Assembly (NCBI GenBank): GCA_018714485.1
Contig: DVNJ01000031.1
Location: 61,078-125,077, forward strand
From: Candidatus Caccalectryoclostridium excrementigallinarum
Lineage (GTDB): Bacteria; Bacillota; Clostridia; Christensenellales; UBA3700
Length of the DNA: 64,000 nt
Direction: 5' to 3'
The notes below the pieces were generated by a model, which was given only the letters and a program-made list of their open reading frames with translations, ran no database searches and was not told the DNA's origin. Position numbers and translations under genes: made by a program. This document shows, piece after piece, positions 18,045-32,232 of this stretch. Numbering within the stretch: position 1 is the first letter of the stretch; each line of letters starts with the position of its first letter.

Positions 18045-18608
18045 ATGACCGCAAAAGAATTCAACGAGATCGCCGCAAGGGGCGGCATTCTTCCCTCCGA
18101 TTCGCAGTTGCACGAATTCATGCACGAGAGCGCAAGTCGGGCGCAACGCATCACCGCCGAGATAAATTCGGGTTTTCACACGCAACAAGAGCTGCGCGCG
18201 CTCATGTCCGAGCTGCTCGGCTATGAACTCGACGAAACATTCAGGCTCTTTCCGCCTTTTTATACCGATTACGGCAGAAATTTGCAGATAGGAAAAAACG
18301 TCTTTATCAATTCGGGCTGCTGTTTTCAGGATCAGGGCGGGATCGAGATCGGCGACGGCTGTCTCATCGGGCATCAGGTCGTGATCGCCACTCTCGATCA
18401 TCATCCCGATCCCCAAAGGCGCGGCGATATGCTGCCGAAAAAAGTCTCTCTCGGCAAGAATGTCTGGATAGGTTCGCACGCCACGATATTGTCGGGAGTG
18501 ACCATAGGCGACGGCGCGATCGTCGCCGCGGGCGCGGTCGTGACCAAAGACGTCCCGCCGGGATGCGTCGTTGCCGGCGTCCCCGCCAAAGTCATAAAGA
18601 GCGTCTAA
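18045..18608 (+). CDS. Maltose/galactoside O-acetyltransferase family (left-handed beta-helix) enzyme
   Basis: 187 aa. Has the Mac N-terminal domain pattern and hexapeptide repeats ([53 protein letters not shown]). AGGAG RBS. Confidence 0.85.
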
Positions 18609-18895
18609 ACATAGAGCTTTTGACCGATAAAGAGGGTCGGCGAAGTCAAGGCGTTGTTTTCGAGGATATGTTTTTCGCTCACGTTGAACCGCCGCGCGAC
18701 TGACGACAGCGAATCGAAGGGGCGCACGACATATTCTCTCCCCTCCGCCTGCGCGATCAGCAGGCGCACGCCCTCTTCGATCTGCTCCTCGCGGCAGTTG
18801 TTCAGCGCGCATATCCTGCGCGCCGCAACGCCTGTTTTGCGGGCAACGTCCTCCGCATTCTCCCCCTTCCTCACCCGATAGATCAAGTATTCCAT
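18605..18895 (-). CDS. Small protein with two LysM peptidoglycan-binding domains
   Basis: 96 aa. The two LysM-like units are [28 protein letters not shown] and [29 protein letters not shown]...GQKLYV. GGAGG RBS. Confidence 0.7.
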
Positions 18896-18945
18896 TTTCG
18901 CCTCCGCTAAATTATATTTTCCCGCCGCAGATAATATCCTATAAT

Positions 18946-20433
18946 ATGAAAAAGATATTCAAGGCGTTTTTCACCGTAACTTCCGTTTCCGTTGTCACGC
19001 GCGGCATTTCCTTTATCTTCAAGATCTTCATCTCGCGCGAACTGGGCGCGGAAGTGATGGGCGTCTATCAGATATGCTTTTCCGTCTTTGCCATGTTCGC
19101 GGCGCTCGCCGCGGGCGGCATACCCGTCACTCTCTCCCGCATCACGGCGGAGACGCAGGCTTTGGGCGATCTCAAAGCCCAACGCTCGGCGGTGACGACA
19201 GCCATGATGATAAGCCTGATGATCTCCATGGCGGTCTGCACGCTTTTTTACAGCTTTCCTTCCATTCTCGACCTACTCTTTTCCGACGCGCGCTGCCGAA
19301 AACTCTTTTTGATAATCCTGCCCACGATGATCGCCACCTCCGTCTATGCCGTTATCCGCAGCTGGTTTTGGGGAAGGCAGAATTATTTTGTCTTTTCGCT
19401 CTCGGAAGCCGCCGACGAGATCATTAAAGTCGCCGTCTGCGCCTTGATGATATTTTTGCTCGCCGACCTTGTCGCGCTCGAATATTCTCTCGCCTATGCC
19501 ATTTTGATCAGCGATTTCATCGCCGCGGGCTTGCTCATTTTTCTCTTTTTCAAAAGCGGCGGCAGAGCGGGCGCGCCCACCATGTGCGCTCCGATCTTGC
19601 GCTCGGCGGCGCCGCTGACCGTGACGCGGCTTTGCGGAAGTCTGATGGCGGTCTTCGTCTCGCTCGCCCTGCCCGCCGTCCTGACGGGCGCCTACGGTCT
19701 GACGAGCGCGGAAGCCACGGCGGAATACGGCAGAGCGTCGGGAATGGTCATGCCGCTTCTGCTCGCCCCCTCTTCGGTAGTCGGTTCGCTTTCCGTGGTC
19801 ATGATCCCCGAGATCGCCTCGCGCAACGCCGGCGGCGACAAGAATCTCTCTTCGGCGATACGCCGTTCGGCAGACTTCACCTGCGCCGTCGCCTGCGCGG
19901 CGTTCATCGTCTTTGCCTCCTGCGGCGATCAGATAGGAAATCTGCTCTATGCTGACGAAAAGGTGGGCAGCCAGCTTTCCTTCGCCGCCTTTATCGTTCT
20001 CCCGCTCTCGCTCAACTCCATGGCGGCGACCTCGCTCAATTCGCTCGGCAGGGAGAGCCGCACCTTTTTCAGCAGCGCGGCGGGCTATCTCTTCCTCGCC
20101 GCGGGAATACTGCTTTTGCCGCGTTTTATGGGCATATACGGCTATTATACCGCCTTTTTTTGCTACCACTGCGCCTCACTATTTTGCAACGTTATGCAGC
20201 TCAAGCGCGTTTTCCCGCAAGGAGTCGGTCACGGCAAATATTCCGCCCTCATCGCTGTCTCCTGCGCAGTTGCGCTCTTTGTCGGCGCGATCTCCTCTTG
20301 GACGCGCGGCTTAGGCGACCTGCTCTCCTGCCTTATCTGCCTCCCCGTCGCGGCGCTGCTTTACTTTGTCGCGCTGCGCCTGACGGGATATATGCCCAAG
20401 CCCTCGCTGCTGATAGGTTATATCAGAAAATAG
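18946..20433 (+). CDS. MOP-superfamily polysaccharide/lipid II flippase, SpoVB/MurJ-like
   Basis: 495 aa, about 14 TM. The N-terminus VVTRGISFIFKIFISRELGAEVMGVYQICFSVF...GIPVTLSRITAE follows the SpoVB pattern (VTRMLGFVNRVVIARFIGEEGVGLYMMA...GLPVAISKLVAE, from memory). Confidence 0.65.
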   Translation: MKKIFKAFFTVTSVSVVTRGISFIFKIFISRELGAEVMGVYQICFSVFAMFAALAAGGIPVTLSRITAETQALGDLKAQRSAVTTAMMISLMISMAVCTLFYSFPSILDLLFSDARCRKLFLIILPTMIATSVYAVIRSWFWGRQNYFVFSLSEAADEIIKVAVCALMIFLLADLVALEYSLAYAILISDFIAAGLLIFLFFKSGGRAGAPTMCAPILRSAAPLTVTRLCGSLMAVFVSLALPAVLTGAYGLTSAEATAEYGRASGMVMPLLLAPSSVVGSLSVVMIPEIASRNAGGDKNLSSAIRRSADFTCAVACAAFIVFASCGDQIGNLLYADEKVGSQLSFAAFIVLPLSLNSMAATSLNSLGRESRTFFSSAAGYLFLAAGILLLPRFMGIYGYYTAFFCYHCASLFCNVMQLKRVFPQGVGHGKYSALIAVSCAVALFVGAISSWTRGLGDLLSCLICLPVAALLYFVALRLTGYMPKPSLLIGYIRK

Positions 20434-20466
20434 CATAAAAGGCGCGCGGGAGCAGATACTAAGCTC

Positions 20467-21171
20467 ATGCTGATCGTATTCGTGCGCGCCATACTCATCT
20501 ATATCTTTCTGCTCGTCGCCATGCGGCTGATGGGCAAAAAGCAGTTGGGCGAACTTCAACCCTTCGAATTCGCCGTCACGCTCATCATGGCGGAGCTTGC
20601 CTGCATTCCCATGTCGGACACGACCGTCCCCGTCATCTACGGACTCGTGCCCATCTTCACCCTCTTCATCGTGCAATTCGCCCTGACCAAGCTCATCAAG
20701 CACTCCTTGAAGGCAAGGCGGCTCATCAACGGCAAGCCCGTGATCGTCATCAATCCCTGCGGCATAGATTACCGCGCGATAAGCATGCTCGACCTCACCG
20801 TGAACGACCTTCTGGAAGCGCTCAGGGAAAAGAACTATCTTTCGCCCGAAGAACTCGAATACGCCATTTTCGAGACCAACGGCGACGTGAGCGTGATACC
20901 CAAAGCCCGCCCGCTGACCACGGAGGATATGCATCTTAACGCGCCGCCCGCACAGCTGCCTTACGCCGTCATTTGCGAAGGCAAGAAGATGTCGGACAAT
21001 ATCCGCAAGGGCAAAATAGATTACGCCTTGGTGGAAAAAGTTCTGAAAGCGCACGACCTCAAACAAAAAAACGTCTTGCTCATGACGGTGACGGGCGGAG
21101 AGAATTTCTATTTGCAGCCCAAATCGGGAAGATATATCACGGGCAGATTGGAGGAAGAGAATGCGGGGTAA
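20467..21171 (+). CDS. DUF421 (YetF/YdfS-like) membrane protein
   Basis: 234 aa. Contains IFLLVAMRLMGKKQLGELQPFEFAVTLIMAELA, typical of the YetF N-terminal region, followed by a DUF421 soluble domain. Confidence 0.75.
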   Translation: MLIVFVRAILIYIFLLVAMRLMGKKQLGELQPFEFAVTLIMAELACIPMSDTTVPVIYGLVPIFTLFIVQFALTKLIKHSLKARRLINGKPVIVINPCGIDYRAISMLDLTVNDLLEALREKNYLSPEELEYAIFETNGDVSVIPKARPLTTEDMHLNAPPAQLPYAVICEGKKMSDNIRKGKIDYALVEKVLKAHDLKQKNVLLMTVTGGENFYLQPKSGRYITGRLEEENAG

Positions 21172-21544
21172 GGTTTGGCTTGCGCTGATAATATTGGCGC
21201 TCATCGTGGGGCTGGGGATAGGCGAACAGGTCTATATCAACAAGACGTTCGACGCCGCGATTCAAAAGAGCGAAGAGATAACCGCGCTCATCCGCGCGAA
21301 AAATTACGCGGGCGCAAGCGCCGCCGCCGAAGCGATGTCCGATTGGTGGAAAAACGAGCGCGACGTCTTGGAATTTCTCTGCCCCAACAACGACGTCAAA
21401 GGGATCATGACCGCCATCAGCGATCTTCAAGGCTCGCTCGCCGCCAAGACCTACGACGACTCTCTTCAACGCAGCATTTCGCTCACGGGCAACGTGGAAA
21501 ACAGCAAAAACCTGCTCACTTTCAAATGGAAAAACGTGCTTTGA
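21161..21544 (+). CDS. DUF4363-like small membrane-anchored protein
   Basis: 127 aa. One N-terminal TM, then a helical region with the W-W-K motif (MSDWWKNERDVLEF). 11-nt overlap with the DUF421 gene, which is the usual pairing in Clostridia. Confidence 0.6.
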   Translation: MRGKVWLALIILALIVGLGIGEQVYINKTFDAAIQKSEEITALIRAKNYAGASAAAEAMSDWWKNERDVLEFLCPNNDVKGIMTAISDLQGSLAAKTYDDSLQRSISLTGNVENSKNLLTFKWKNVL

Positions 21545-29207: not shown

Positions 29208-29872
29208 CTTCTTTTCCTGCCTTCGCGCCCGTATCCCGCCTTATTGAGCGCCGCCACTATCGGCGGCACGAGGATCGTGAACGCCGCGACCTCTATGCTC
29301 GCATTGACCGCGAGCGTCACCTGAAAGAACTGCGGCAGGATCGCGCTGCTTATCGGCATGTCGCCCACGATATAGCAAAGCCAGATCATCAGGCAGACAA
29401 GCCCCGTGTTCGTCACCGTACCGATAAAAGCGGTAAGGCTCGCAACTCCGTATGCCGCCGCGCTCTTCTTGCGCGCAAGTTTTTTGTATTCCTCTCCGCC
29501 CTTTTCGCATTGCGCCATGGGCGCGTCGAAGCGCTTTTGCACTATCTTCATCAAGCCGTTGAAAGAAAGATAGGACACGACTCCGACCATGAGGCGGGGC
29601 GGGATCGCCACGAGCGGGTTTTGGAACACGGGCGCGGTCAGCGTTCCCGCGCGCACCGTGTAAGCCGCGGTGAACATTCCCAGCGCCATCACTGTCGTGA
29701 GGAACGCCGTAACTCCCCTTTTGCGCATCATCGCCGCCACGAACACGGGCACGAGGCAGAACGCCAAGCTCGCGCCGGCAATGGGCGGTATGGGCGCAAA
29801 GACGAACACGAGTTCGAGCGCCGTAAGCACCGCGGTCAACGCTATCGTCGCCGCCGAAATTTTAATTTTCAT
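29204..29872 (-). CDS. ECF-transporter S-component-like membrane protein (substrate unknown; PanT-like by context only)
   Basis: 222 aa, about 6 TM. General S-component layout. ATGA overlap with coaX. Confidence 0.5.
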   Translation of the reverse strand: MKIKISAATIALTAVLTALELVFVFAPIPPIAGASLAFCLVPVFVAAMMRKRGVTAFLTTVMALGMFTAAYTVRAGTLTAPVFQNPLVAIPPRLMVGVVSYLSFNGLMKIVQKRFDAPMAQCEKGGEEYKKLARKKSAAAYGVASLTAFIGTVTNTGLVCLMIWLCYIVGDMPISSAILPQFFQVTLAVNASIEVAAFTILVPPIVAALNKAGYGREGRKRR

Positions 29873-29980
29873 CGCTCTCTCCGATTAGGCTCGCAAGGAT
29901 ACCTATCTAAGACTTTATTGCACCGCGAACTCTTCGCCGTGCGGTCGTCGTACCGCCGACGGCATTCGCCGTACCGTTAA
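29873..29980 (-). promoter_or_regulatory. Structured ~105-nt 5' leader of the S-component/coaX operon (candidate cis-regulatory RNA, class unknown)
   Basis: The leader contains hairpins ACGGC-gaat-GCCGT and GCAC-g-GCGAA-gag-TTCGC-g-GTGC, plus a direct repeat CGGTACG x2. No terminator T-run. GGAGAGAG RBS at the 3' end. Confidence 0.3.
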
Positions 29981-30009
29981 ATTATAACAAATGCGCGCGC
30001 ATTTTACAA
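29981..30009 (-). promoter_or_regulatory. Sigma-A type promoter
   Basis: Minus strand TTGTAA-17 nt-TATAAT. Confidence 0.6.
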
Positions 30010-30101
30010 GCAATTAAAGCGCAAAAGACGCCGAGCCCGATTTACCCGCAAAAGGCTCGTCTTGCCCGCATTCGACGCGCGGGCGCCGAGGAGAGAAAAC
30101 C

Positions 30102-30407
30102 TTAAGCGGAATGCTTTTTCTTTTTGAGTGAAATTTTACGCGGATACCCTTCTTTGAGGCAGCCGTTTTCGTCGAAAGCGCCTATGCGGCGATAGTAGAA
30201 ATAGATAGCGGCGTCCCACGTCAGCCCGACGGCGGCGAAAGGGAGCGCGAAACAGAGAAAATACCACCCGACAAGATCGGTAAAGACGAACTGCGCGCAA
30301 AGCCACATGATGAAAAGGAGCGGAAAGACTGTCATCACCCAAAGGCGATAAGAAAGCGGCTTACCGTCATAGCTTATCATCCAGGTGAAAAAGTTGAATT
30401 TTCTCAT
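30102..30407 (-). CDS. Hypothetical 101-aa two-TM membrane protein, probably leaderless
   Basis: Start moved to MRKFNFF (30407). A perfect TTGACA-17-TATAAT promoter and the terminator of the upstream micro-ORF lie inside the 5' extension given in the track. Confidence 0.6.
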   Translation of the reverse strand: MRKFNFFTWMISYDGKPLSYRLWVMTVFPLLFIMWLCAQFVFTDLVGWYFLCFALPFAAVGLTWDAAIYFYYRRIGAFDENGCLKEGYPRKISLKKKKHSA

Positions 30408-30413
30408 GCTTTG

Positions 30414-30442
30414 ATTATAGCGCGGCAAGAGATTTTTGTCAA
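30414..30442 (-). promoter_or_regulatory. Perfect consensus sigma-A promoter ending 6 nt before ATG 30407
   Basis: Minus strand TTGACA (30442..30437)-17 nt-TATAAT (30419..30414)-caaagc-ATG. Confidence 0.7.
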
Positions 30443-30450
30443 TGAAAGCG

Positions 30451-30481
30451 TAAATAAAAATCAGCCCCGCCGCGGCGGGGC
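30451..30481 (-). terminator. Rho-independent terminator of the Cys-rich micro-ORF
   Basis: Minus strand GCCCCGCC-GC-GGCGGGGC followed by tgaTTTTTATTT. Confidence 0.65.
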
Positions 30482-30540
30482 CGAGTGCGCGCAGATCCCC
30501 CAACGGAGCGCGCCCTATGATGTACTTTCCCGCTCTGAAC

Positions 30541-30705
30541 TCAGTTGCAGGAATTGCCGCAGCCGCCGCAGCAGCTGAGCGCGACGAGCACGGGGATTAT
30601 GTTGCAGTTGCAGCTGCCGCCGCAGTTGTTGCCCAGACCGCCGCAGCACATGAGCAAGAGAATGAGCCACAAGCAGTCGCAGCCGCCGAAATCGAAATTA
30701 TTCAT
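30541..30705 (-). CDS. 54-aa cysteine/glycine-rich hydrophobic micro-protein (not in the ORF track)
   Basis: My translation is MNNFDFGGCDCLWLILLLMCCGGLGNNCGGSCNCNIIPVLVALSCCGGCGNSCN, then TGA. GGAGG lies 6 nt upstream of the ATG. It has a dedicated terminator downstream and uniform GC3-rich codons (all Cys are TGC; Gly are GGC/GGT). Confidence 0.6.
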   Translation of the reverse strand: MNNFDFGGCDCLWLILLLMCCGGLGNNCGGSCNCNIIPVLVALSCCGGCGNSCN

Positions 30706-30785
30706 GTTTCGCCTCCATATTTTTGACGGATTTCCGCCTTTCCTAATTCACAATACGCAAAATGACTTAAAAGTGTTACCGTCGA

Positions 30786-30814
30786 TTGACAAACGCGCGC
30801 GAGGGCGTTATAAT
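30786..30814 (+). promoter_or_regulatory. Perfect consensus sigma-A promoter for glyQS
   Basis: TTGACA (30786..30791)-17 nt-TATAAT (30809..30814). 32-nt leader with a GGAG RBS. Confidence 0.7.
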
Positions 30815-30846
30815 AGCAGGGAATCATTTTAACAACGGAGCGTGTT

Positions 30847-32232
30847 ATGGCACAACTGACAATGGACAAATTGGTCGCCCTTTGCAAAGGCAGGGGCTTT
30901 ATTTATCCCGGCAGCGAAATTTACGGCGGTCTCGCCAACACCTGGGACTACGGTCCTCTCGGCGTCGAGCTGAAAAACAACGTAAAGCGCGCCTGGTGGA
31001 AAAAATTCGTGCAGGAAAATACTCTCAACACGGGTATCGACTGCGCCATTTTGATGAATCCCAACGTTTGGGTCGCGAGCGGTCACGTCGGCGGATTCAG
31101 TGATCCGCTCATGGATTGCAGAGCCTGCAAGTCCCGTCACCGCGCGGATAATCTCATCGAAGATTATATGAAAAAGCATCATTGCGAAGAGAGCATCGCC
31201 GGCTGGGACAACGCCAAAATGGAAAATTATATCCGTGAAAAGCAGATCCCCTGCCCCGTTTGCGGCAAGAGCGACTTCACGGGCGTGAGGCAGTTCAACC
31301 TGATGTTCAAGACTTTCCAGGGCGTCACGGAAGACAGCGTCAGTACCCTTTATCTGCGTCCCGAGACCGCACAGGGCATTTTCGTCAACTTCCTCAACGT
31401 CCAACGCACGTCGCGCATGAAGGTGCCCTTCGGCATAGCTCAGGTGGGCAAGAGCTTCAGAAACGAGATCACTCCCGGCAACTTCATCTTCCGCGTGAGA
31501 GAATTCGAACAGATGGAGCTGGAATTCTTCTGCAAGCCCGGCACCGACCTCGAATGGTTCGCCTATTGGAAAGAGTTCTGCAAAAATTGGCTGCTCGGCT
31601 TGGGTATCAAGGAAGAAAACCTCAAACTGCGCGACCACGATCCCGAAGAACTCGCCTTTTATTCCAACGCCACGACCGACTTCGAATTCAAGTTCCCCTT
31701 CGGTTGGGGCGAACTCTGGGGCGTCGCGGACAGGACGGATTACGACCTCAAAGCGCACATGAAAGTGAGCGGCAAATCGCTCGAATACACCGATCCCAAC
31801 ACGGGAGAAAAATATGTCCCTTATGTCATCGAACCCTCGCTCGGCGTGGAAAGAATGGTCCTCGCCATTCTCTGCAACGCCTACGAAGAGGAAGAGACGG
31901 ATTCGGAAACGCGCGTCGTGCTCAAACTTCATCACGCGCTCGCTCCTTATAAGGTCGCAGTTTTGCCCTTGCAGAAAAAAGCTCTCGGCGAAAAGTCGGA
32001 AGAGATCTACCGCACTCTCTGCAAGGAATTCTCCTGCACCTATGACGAAGCAGGCTCTATCGGCAAGCGTTACAGAAGACAGGACGAGATAGGCACTCCC
32101 TATTGCGTGACGGTGGACTTCGAAACGCTCGACAACGGCACTGTCACCGTGCGCGAACGCGACTCCATGGCGCAGATAAGGCTCCCCATCGAACGCCTTG
32201 TCGATTACTTCAAGGAAAACTTGGCATACTAA
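30847..32232 (+). CDS. glyQS: Glycine--tRNA ligase (homodimeric class II, GlyQS type)
   Basis: 461 aa. [45 protein letters not shown] plus class II motifs and an anticodon-binding C-domain. Confidence 0.95.

Follow-up and report, generated by a model that had tools for sequence, protein, structure and literature searches.

The 64,000-nucleotide stretch of DNA analysed here (the window) derives from Candidatus Caccalectryoclostridium excrementigallinarum, a member of the Christensenellales within the Clostridia (GenBank assembly GCA_018714485.1, contig DVNJ01000031.1, positions 61,078 to 125,077 of the forward strand), and carries on its minus strand, at 30541..30705, an open reading frame (ORF) of 54 codons followed by TGA. 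This micro-ORF is almost certainly a real, conserved micro-protein gene with a transcription unit of its own, and profile comparisons place its product in a family of clostridial micro-proteins in which two hydrophobic cores are each followed by CCGG. Direct translation of 30705..30541 (minus strand) gives MNNFDFGGCDCLWLILLLMCCGGLGNNCGGSCNCNIIPVLVALSCCGGCGNSCN, then TGA, and a composition count reproduced the 11 Cys (20%), 10 Gly and 8 Asn in 54 residues that had been reported in a first-pass annotation of the same DNA. The charged residues are Asp5 and Asp10 only, with no His, Lys or Arg. The two hydrophobic cores (residues 11-19, CLWLILLLM, and 36-44, IIPVLVALS) each lie between a CxC and a CCGG, with Kyte-Doolittle maxima of 3.00 and 2.71 in a 9-residue window and of 1.89 and 1.51 in a 19-residue window. 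Codons were found to be rich in G+C at the third position (GC3; 0.855 vs 0.70-0.76 in neighbouring genes), as had been noted earlier, and a scan for Cys-rich small ORFs found no paralogue in the 64-kb window.

Two plus-strand ORFs from the track of ORFs of at least 60 amino acids (aa) overlap the micro-ORF, one of 69 aa at 30517..30726 and one of 95 aa at 30545..30832. Both are antisense shadows, as the first-pass annotation had proposed, but its description of them as poly-Ala is true of just the first, which is Ala-rich; the second is Gln/Pro-rich. The micro-ORF itself had been called unannotated, which holds for the 60-aa track but not for public annotations of metagenome-assembled genomes (MAGs), where the gene is already called.

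A structural model of the peptide, predicted with AlphaFold2 from a 20-sequence alignment, contains two helices (residues 10-21 and 36-45) at a mean predicted local distance difference test (pLDDT) score of 48.5, and this low-confidence picture is taken as compatible at most. Since the strictly hydrophobic stretches (8-9 residues each) are too short for classical membrane-spanning helices and the pLDDT is low, the label "transmembrane" is doubtful for this peptide. The cores might, together with their Cys/Gly flanks, fold as a thin hairpin of helices that bears about four thiols per end.

The region 30779..30451 (minus strand) is a stand-alone transcription unit comprising a promoter, a 5' stem-loop leader, a GGAGG Shine-Dalgarno sequence, the 54-codon ORF and an intrinsic terminator, which bears out the earlier proposal of a unit with its own ribosome-binding site and terminator. 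The promoter was located by conservation at 30749..30779 (minus strand) and consists of a -35 element GTAACA at 30779..30774 (AC at 30776..30775), a spacer of 17 nt and a -10 element CGTATTGTG at 30757..30749. GGAGG was read directly at 30716..30712 (minus strand), 6 nt 5' of the ATG as previously claimed, and is kept before the ATG in all orthologues. The intrinsic terminator (30484..30451, minus strand), likewise anticipated as a GC-rich hairpin with a T-run, has a stem at 30484..30461 of 10 pairs, 8 of them G-C, followed by TTTTTATTT; it is conserved in orthologues, with compensatory changes in the stem. Past it lies the separate consensus promoter that had been noted for the next gene (TTGACA-17-TATAAT, 12/12, at 30442..30414, minus strand).

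The 5' leader contains a stem-loop, GGCGG-AAAT-CCGTC, at 30725..30738 (minus strand), which starts about 10 nt past the -10 element. When the leaders of the orthologous clade were folded one by one, since a MAFFT alignment had left the hairpins unaligned, all 13 of 13 formed one at a common site, 7-11 nt past the -10 element, with z-scores of -1.5 to -6.1. The stems vary by lineage (GGCGG/CCGTC, GGCG/CGCC, ACGG/CCGT, GGGTAGC/GCTAC, GAGCGG/CCGCTC and ACGGG/CCCGT), and the G-U pairs in the window and in one orthologue (locus L009) suit minus-strand RNA only; the hairpin thus covaries as an RNA of minus-strand sequence. The 3' untranslated region, past the stop codon and ahead of the terminator, carries a block, TACAT-N2-3-TAGGG[CT]G[CT]G-N2-CCG, at 30505..30524 (minus strand), which is conserved in sequence in 8 orthologues from as many species and of which distant members retain only TACATA. 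No consensus structure was found for this block (the consensus fold gave the terminator only), nor a second copy in the window, and an Rfam search over 29800..31000 gave no match. Read on the plus strand, the block falls where the antisense shadow ORF begins.

The claim that the micro-ORF is a real gene rests on its orthologues. A first protein search returned near-identical and indel-bearing relatives that had already been called by public gene callers in MAGs; a protein 98% identical to the product (P0001) occurs in 46 indexed blocks of the collection and is called as a gene in 24 of the 24 contigs read, one carrier being the NCBI assembly GCA_947856195.1. When a single genome was scanned for each GTDB species, seven species-level loci emerged, all of them uncultured Clostridia (labelled as such, as "Christensenellaceae" or as Ca. 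Alloclostridium intestinigallinarum). At least 12 lineages at species level, all uncultured gut Clostridia represented by Christensenellales-like MAGs, were found to carry intact orthologues; those beyond the seven GTDB species were added by profile searching, by a scan of metagenomes and by an exhaustive hidden Markov model (HMM) search. The HMM search, run against 1.84 billion representatives, returned just 5 matches at E<=1e-3, and the metagenome scan added 4 further loci; the core family is narrow.

No orthologue interrupts the frame, and lengths differ only in steps of three nucleotides, always within the G/C/N spacers. Pairwise ratios of nonsynonymous to synonymous divergence (dN/dS) between close orthologues are 0.02-0.10 at dS 0.4-1.2, and pN/pS across the six frames is lowest for the sense frame, at 0.196. 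The antisense frame that shares its wobble position is second, at 0.304, and the remaining four are at least 1.0. Variable columns number 23, 10 and 36 of 45 at codon positions 1, 2 and 3, respectively, and W13, C20, C21, P38, C45 and C53 are invariant in an alignment of 20 family members. The 54-aa peptide is under strong purifying selection.

The family to which this peptide belongs has no Pfam or NCBIfam model. Pfam and NCBIfam scans of the 54-aa peptide gave no match at E<=10, scans of 10 relatives gave none either, and a profile search of the PDB returned a chance match only (E 3.6). However, profile searching reached proteins of 63-88 aa from Lachnospiraceae and other Clostridia, each with two almost identical C-LWIILLL-x-CCGG units, and an hhalign comparison of the window family with the Lachnospiraceae peptides aligned 50 columns, both cores being in register, at 98.6% probability (E 1.4e-15). 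HMM matches to named members of the wider family reached 28-37 bits. Compositional bias may inflate these hhalign and HMM scores; the architecture agrees with them. The profile evidence therefore indicates that the micro-ORF product represents a divergent subfamily of the clostridial twin C-LWIILLL-CCGG micro-proteins, and the first-pass impression of two copies of one pattern is borne out by the near-identical units of the wider family.

The resemblance to this family, which includes proteins of Blautia, Dorea, [Ruminococcus] torques, Claveliimonas bilis and others, extends to a length of 50-90 aa, G/C/N-rich spacers, two hydrophobic cores with CCGG after each, and a monocistronic gene. In the window the two units read C11-LWLILLLM-CCGG and C34-N-IIPVLVALS-CCGG, the second core being a Pro-containing variant. 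The window subfamily differs from the wider family in beginning with MNNF rather than MSDL and in its second core, which has diverged to IIPVLVAL with an invariant Pro. The promoter differs as well: Lachnospiraceae members have AC-N16/17-CATA---TG, whereas the window promoter, which matches the relaxed form of this pattern, has CGTA in place of CATA.

In NCBI the wider clostridial family bears the name "chorion class high-cysteine HCB protein 13". The literature found under this name consists of a single paper, on silkworm, and none was found on the bacterial proteins. The insect name is a composition-driven artefact, a mis-annotation that is spreading via RefSeq and UniRef. Bacterial micro-proteins systematically receive this name of a silkmoth eggshell protein in NCBI annotations, as P0031, P0032, P0048, P0051, P0067, P0099, P0108 and P0112 do.

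Upstream of the window ORF the motif GGTAACACTTTT-N11-GCGTATTGTG is invariant in 8 species-level orthologues. The 64-kb window holds this single copy of it, where shuffled sequence gave an expectation of 0, and every further clade member has GTAACAYT-N12-15-C[G/A/T]TATT. Lachnospiraceae members carry related elements at the same place: CACAC-N14-CATATGATG in Claveliimonas, CACC-N15-CATAGTATG in Blautia, CACAC-N14-CATATTATG in Dorea (L028; with the canonical CATATTAT) and AACAC-N14-CATAATATA in [Ruminococcus] torques. All 19 of the 19 family loci examined match AC-N15-17-C[AGT]TA-NNN-T[AG] at 57-81 nt 5' of the ATG, for which the chance expectation, estimated from information content, is ~0.03-0.06 per 130-nt region, the loci being not all independent. 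The -35 element reads mACmC throughout, and strict CATA is found in seven loci (L017, L020, L021, L028, L029, L030 and L032). In the Lachnospiraceae loci L020, L021, L028 and L029 a conserved leader, (GTA)CTGTAAACA or GTGTAAACA, was also seen right past the -10 element, about 20-35 nt before the ATG.

In Clostridioides difficile, mother-cell promoters share a -10 element like CATATTAT or CATATAAT, of which CATATTAT is the canonical box; sigma-K promoters, with a -10 of CATATAAT, are set apart by AC at -35, and sigma-E promoters by ATA (Saujet 2013; PMC3789822). The same two-block layout has been described in Bacillus subtilis, where yjcZ belongs to the sigma-K regulon (Eichenberger et al.; PMC517825). 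Judged by these motifs, transcription of the family gene from a sigma-K-type promoter is probable, if not strongly so.

The surroundings of the gene differ between lineages. In the window and its close relatives the micro-gene is divergent from glyQS, whose sigma-A promoter (TTGACA-17-TATAAT) lies at 30786..30814 on the plus strand, and downstream, past the terminator, follow genes for a small membrane protein and the S component of an energy-coupling factor transporter, then coaX and hom. Among distant members glyQS is kept in L017 and L032 and coaX-hom in L014 and L031; otherwise the contexts differ, and the Lachnospiraceae genes lie in unrelated ones. The family is accompanied by no maturase, transporter, immunity gene, sigma/anti-sigma pair or metal gene in the loci examined. 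The family gene is a self-contained unit.

Several details of these neighbours were recorded. The downstream membrane-protein gene (30102..30503, minus strand) is started by public callers at TTG 30503, inside the micro-ORF terminator, which gives 133 aa. However, the sigma-A promoter at 30442..30414 ends 6 nt before ATG 30407, and the product is therefore probably of 101 aa, with an mRNA that has no leader or almost none; this protein belongs to no Pfam or NCBIfam family. The sigma-A promoter of glyQS (30847..32232, plus strand; glycyl-tRNA synthetase) is just about 33 nt before its ATG, and a T-box leader, which glyQS of a Firmicute would usually have, is not detected by Rfam in 29800..31000. 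In [Ruminococcus] torques (L029) an S8 peptidase stands beside the family gene copy; L020, L028 and L029 share a downstream pair of proteins of about 165 aa and about 93 aa, and L028 and L029 also have a convergent ORF of 50-51 aa. For uncharacterised neighbours in the Lachnospiraceae loci no informative family was returned.

In Blautia (metagenome contig L021, 3236..5243) the family gene directly follows genes for a second S8 peptidase and for a germination subtilase of Csp type, 564 aa long (E 4e-90 to CspBA and 8e-84 to CspC), so that at least this host has spore machinery. In the window, NCBIfam and Pfam scans of 20 proteins gave as sporulation-linked yield a sub-threshold SpoVB match, LysM, DUF421 and DUF4363 only. 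These fall in a cluster at 18605..21544, which encodes a small double-LysM protein, a SpoVB-like flippase, a DUF421/YetF protein and a DUF4363 protein. The double-LysM gene (18605..18895, minus strand) is preceded by AC-N17-CATATTAT at 18967..18941 (minus strand), and this mother-cell -10 box hints at sporulation sigma factors, a single match not being significant in 64 kb. The DUF421 operon CD1789-CD1788 of C. difficile is under sigma-G control (PMC3789822).

We favour the reading, at a probability of roughly 40%, that the micro-ORF encodes a peptide made late in sporulation for the envelope or coat of the spore, with its cysteines as the cross-linking sites. On this view the gene would be transcribed late in sporulation, in the mother cell, from the sigma-K-type promoter AC-N17-C[G/A]TATTGTG, and the 5' hairpin may stabilise an abundant message. 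The greasy peptide would then move into hydrophobic outer layers of the forming spore, whether the inner coat or the outer membrane of the forespore, where its 11 thiols might, after lysis of the mother cell, lock it and possibly its partners in place via disulfide cross-links. It would thus act in the manner of SscA and the sigma-K-dependent YjcZ of B. subtilis, and of Cys-rich coat and exosporium proteins of clostridia, while sharing no ancestry with them. A wider proposal, that the twin-CCGG micro-proteins form an unrecognised, Clostridia-wide class of sigma-K-driven spore-envelope peptides, hydrophobic helical hairpins with a thiol cluster at either end that would become a disulfide-hardened layer when spores meet oxygen, is doubtful; if it were true, the peptide and its mother-cell promoter would mark uncultured Christensenellales-like gut lineages as true endospore formers.

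A number of points weigh against a spore-envelope role. The window and most of the clade have CGTA at -10, not CATA, together with GTAAC at -35, a combination (GTAAC-N17-CGTA) that fits the promoters of extracytoplasmic function (ECF) sigma factors equally well. Strict sigma-K motifs are no more frequent in the window than expected (2 observed vs 2.3), and the SpoVB-like match fell below its threshold, at 190.8 against a cut-off of 372.3 bits. Localisation and cross-linking are pure inference from composition, and the confidence of the structural model is low. Furthermore, cultured Christensenella have been described as non-sporulating, and predictions from MAGs for the Christensenellales are mixed, some being predicted spore formers (PMC11536998; PMC12536801).

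The serious rival is that the gene encodes an envelope-stress peptide, transcribed in vegetative cells by an ECF sigma factor from GTAAC-N17-CGTA and resident in the cytoplasmic membrane, like the small membrane peptides of the B. subtilis sigW regulon. An AAC in the -35 and a CGT in the -10 element are hallmarks of ECF promoters, as in TGAAAC-N16-CGTA for sigW and TGTAAC-N17-CGAC for sigX of B. subtilis; the peptide is hydrophobic, and nearly every distinct clade locus has GTAAC, exactly 17 nt and CGTA. However, the exceptions are found within the clade itself, where L017/L025 (CATA) and L014-L016 (CTTA) break the CGT core, while the Lachnospiraceae relatives have CACAC or CACC with CATA, and neither AAC nor CGT. 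A sigma-K-type element is for these reasons the common denominator of the family. With no sigma or anti-sigma gene near any locus examined either, envelope stress is an unlikely explanation, although one to be taken seriously.

The cysteines could also serve, independently of sporulation, a thiol-rich membrane peptide whose CxC and CC clusters, at either end of a helical hairpin, would bind metal (Zn, Cu or Fe) or act as a sacrificial thiol buffer. A Cys content of one residue in five, CxC and CC flanking both cores, and the invariance of C20, C21, C45 and C53 would suit such a function, but neither Pfam nor NCBIfam returned a metallothionein or other metal-binding family, there is no PDB relative, and no metal transporter or regulator is linked in the contexts examined, a ZupT-like gene about 18 kb off being unlinked; we regard this as improbable. 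Still less probable is a toxic or antimicrobial peptide, whether a type I toxin, a bacteriocin or the precursor of a ribosomally synthesised and post-translationally modified peptide (RiPP) of the sactipeptide or ranthipeptide kind. The peptide is small, hydrophobic and Cys-rich, and one YjcZ-like database protein is labelled "putative type I toxin"; against this, no locus has an adjacent gene for maturation, transport or immunity, the genes nearby being of the kind of glyQS, coaX, hom and hflX, the N-terminus does not resemble a leader, a promoter scan finds no plus-strand promoter inside or 3' of the ORF from which an antisense antitoxin RNA could be read, and the gene holds a single-copy, syntenic chromosomal position under strong purifying selection across species. 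Scarcely credible is the proposal that the sense ORF is not the functional element, with plus-strand 30517..30726 as the gene or the ORF as a Cys/Gly/Asn leader peptide that attenuates downstream genes: the antisense frame is open in nearly all orthologues and comes second in pN/pS, and TACAT of the 3' block reads ATGTA on the plus strand at the start of 30517..30726, but the sense frame is lower, a stop interrupts the antisense frame in L014, neither a Shine-Dalgarno sequence nor a promoter is conserved for that frame, the sense peptide is conserved at the protein level where the DNA has diverged, the strong terminator and the independent 12/12 sigma-A promoter part the ORF from the next gene, and attenuation is excluded because the downstream genes differ between lineages.

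The gene was already known as a hypothetical protein in public MAGs, and the wider family was visible in NCBI, wrongly named and uncharacterised. New here are the connection of the Christensenellales-type peptides with those of Lachnospiraceae type, the exclusion from the YjcZ family set out below, the shared promoter of apparent mother-cell type and the covarying 5' hairpin. Small proteins under annotation cut-offs are systematically missed, and in this case a whole family stands in public databases under a wrong insect name, with no model and with no literature found. If the link to sporulation is true, the family would be a clostridial counterpart to the barely studied coat micro-peptides of the SscA and YjcZ type, the peptide and its promoter would provide a simple marker of sporulation capacity in uncultured gut Clostridia, and the peptide, very small and abundant, could serve to anchor proteins for spore display in anaerobes. 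Should the ECF alternative be correct, the peptide would be a new envelope-stress effector.

Among known systems, the YjcZ family (TIGR01732/PF09680, "tiny_TM_bacill") was the one to which the peptide had been likened in the first-pass annotation. YjcZ proteins are also tiny and begin with a region rich in G and C, after which come a very hydrophobic core and small residues, and B. subtilis yjcZ depends on sigma-K (PMC517825), the promoter type proposed for the window gene. However, they have one core, with the consensus GFALIVVLFILLIIVG, whereas the window family has two, and a single core of about FALIVVLFILLIIVG ending in an invariant Gly is not what the window cores show (LWLILLLMCC and IIPVLVALSCC). 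TIGR01732 (cut-off 21.35 bits) and PF09680 give no match at E<=10, although a synthetic YjcZ consensus, run as a positive control, scored 38.7 bits against TIGR01732 and so demonstrated that the model works on tiny peptides. An hhalign comparison of the window family with 26 genuine, aligned YjcZ proteins, all retrieved from Bacillales and all with PF09680, gave 2.7% probability, and a second value was 0.9%; the YjcZ matches retrieved came from Bacillales only. Membership of YjcZ is therefore rejected, and the earlier idea of a sporulation peptide is retained as an analogy, by way of the sigma-K-type promoter.

Other known classes were tried and rejected. A lipoprotein is suggested by the loose fit of VALSC to a lipobox, but there is no N-terminal Lys or Arg, and relatives replace the Ser at -1 with C, N, E, Q or L. 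SCIFF/ranthipeptide or other Cys-rich RiPP precursors are set aside for want of an adjacent maturase or an NCBIfam match, and bacterial metallothioneins (SmtA/BmtA) for want of a family match, a PDB relative or any His, and in view of the two hydrophobic cores.

Further parallels are found among coat components of the spore. Cys-rich coat and exosporium proteins of clostridia such as CdeC and CdeM of C. difficile are expressed late in the mother cell and are presumed to be cross-linked by disulfides. The window peptide is comparable in its high Cys content and, if the promoter is read correctly, in its expression, but CdeC and CdeM are much larger and soluble and are not known to resemble it in sequence. 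The closest functional precedent, by description and not by sequence, is SscA (YhzE) of B. subtilis, a 28-aa hydrophobic peptide of the inner coat that is highly expressed and needed for the assembly of CotB/G/H (PMC13417171). SscA is half the size of the window peptide, and its function is established by experiment where that of the window peptide is inferred; both are very small and hydrophobic.

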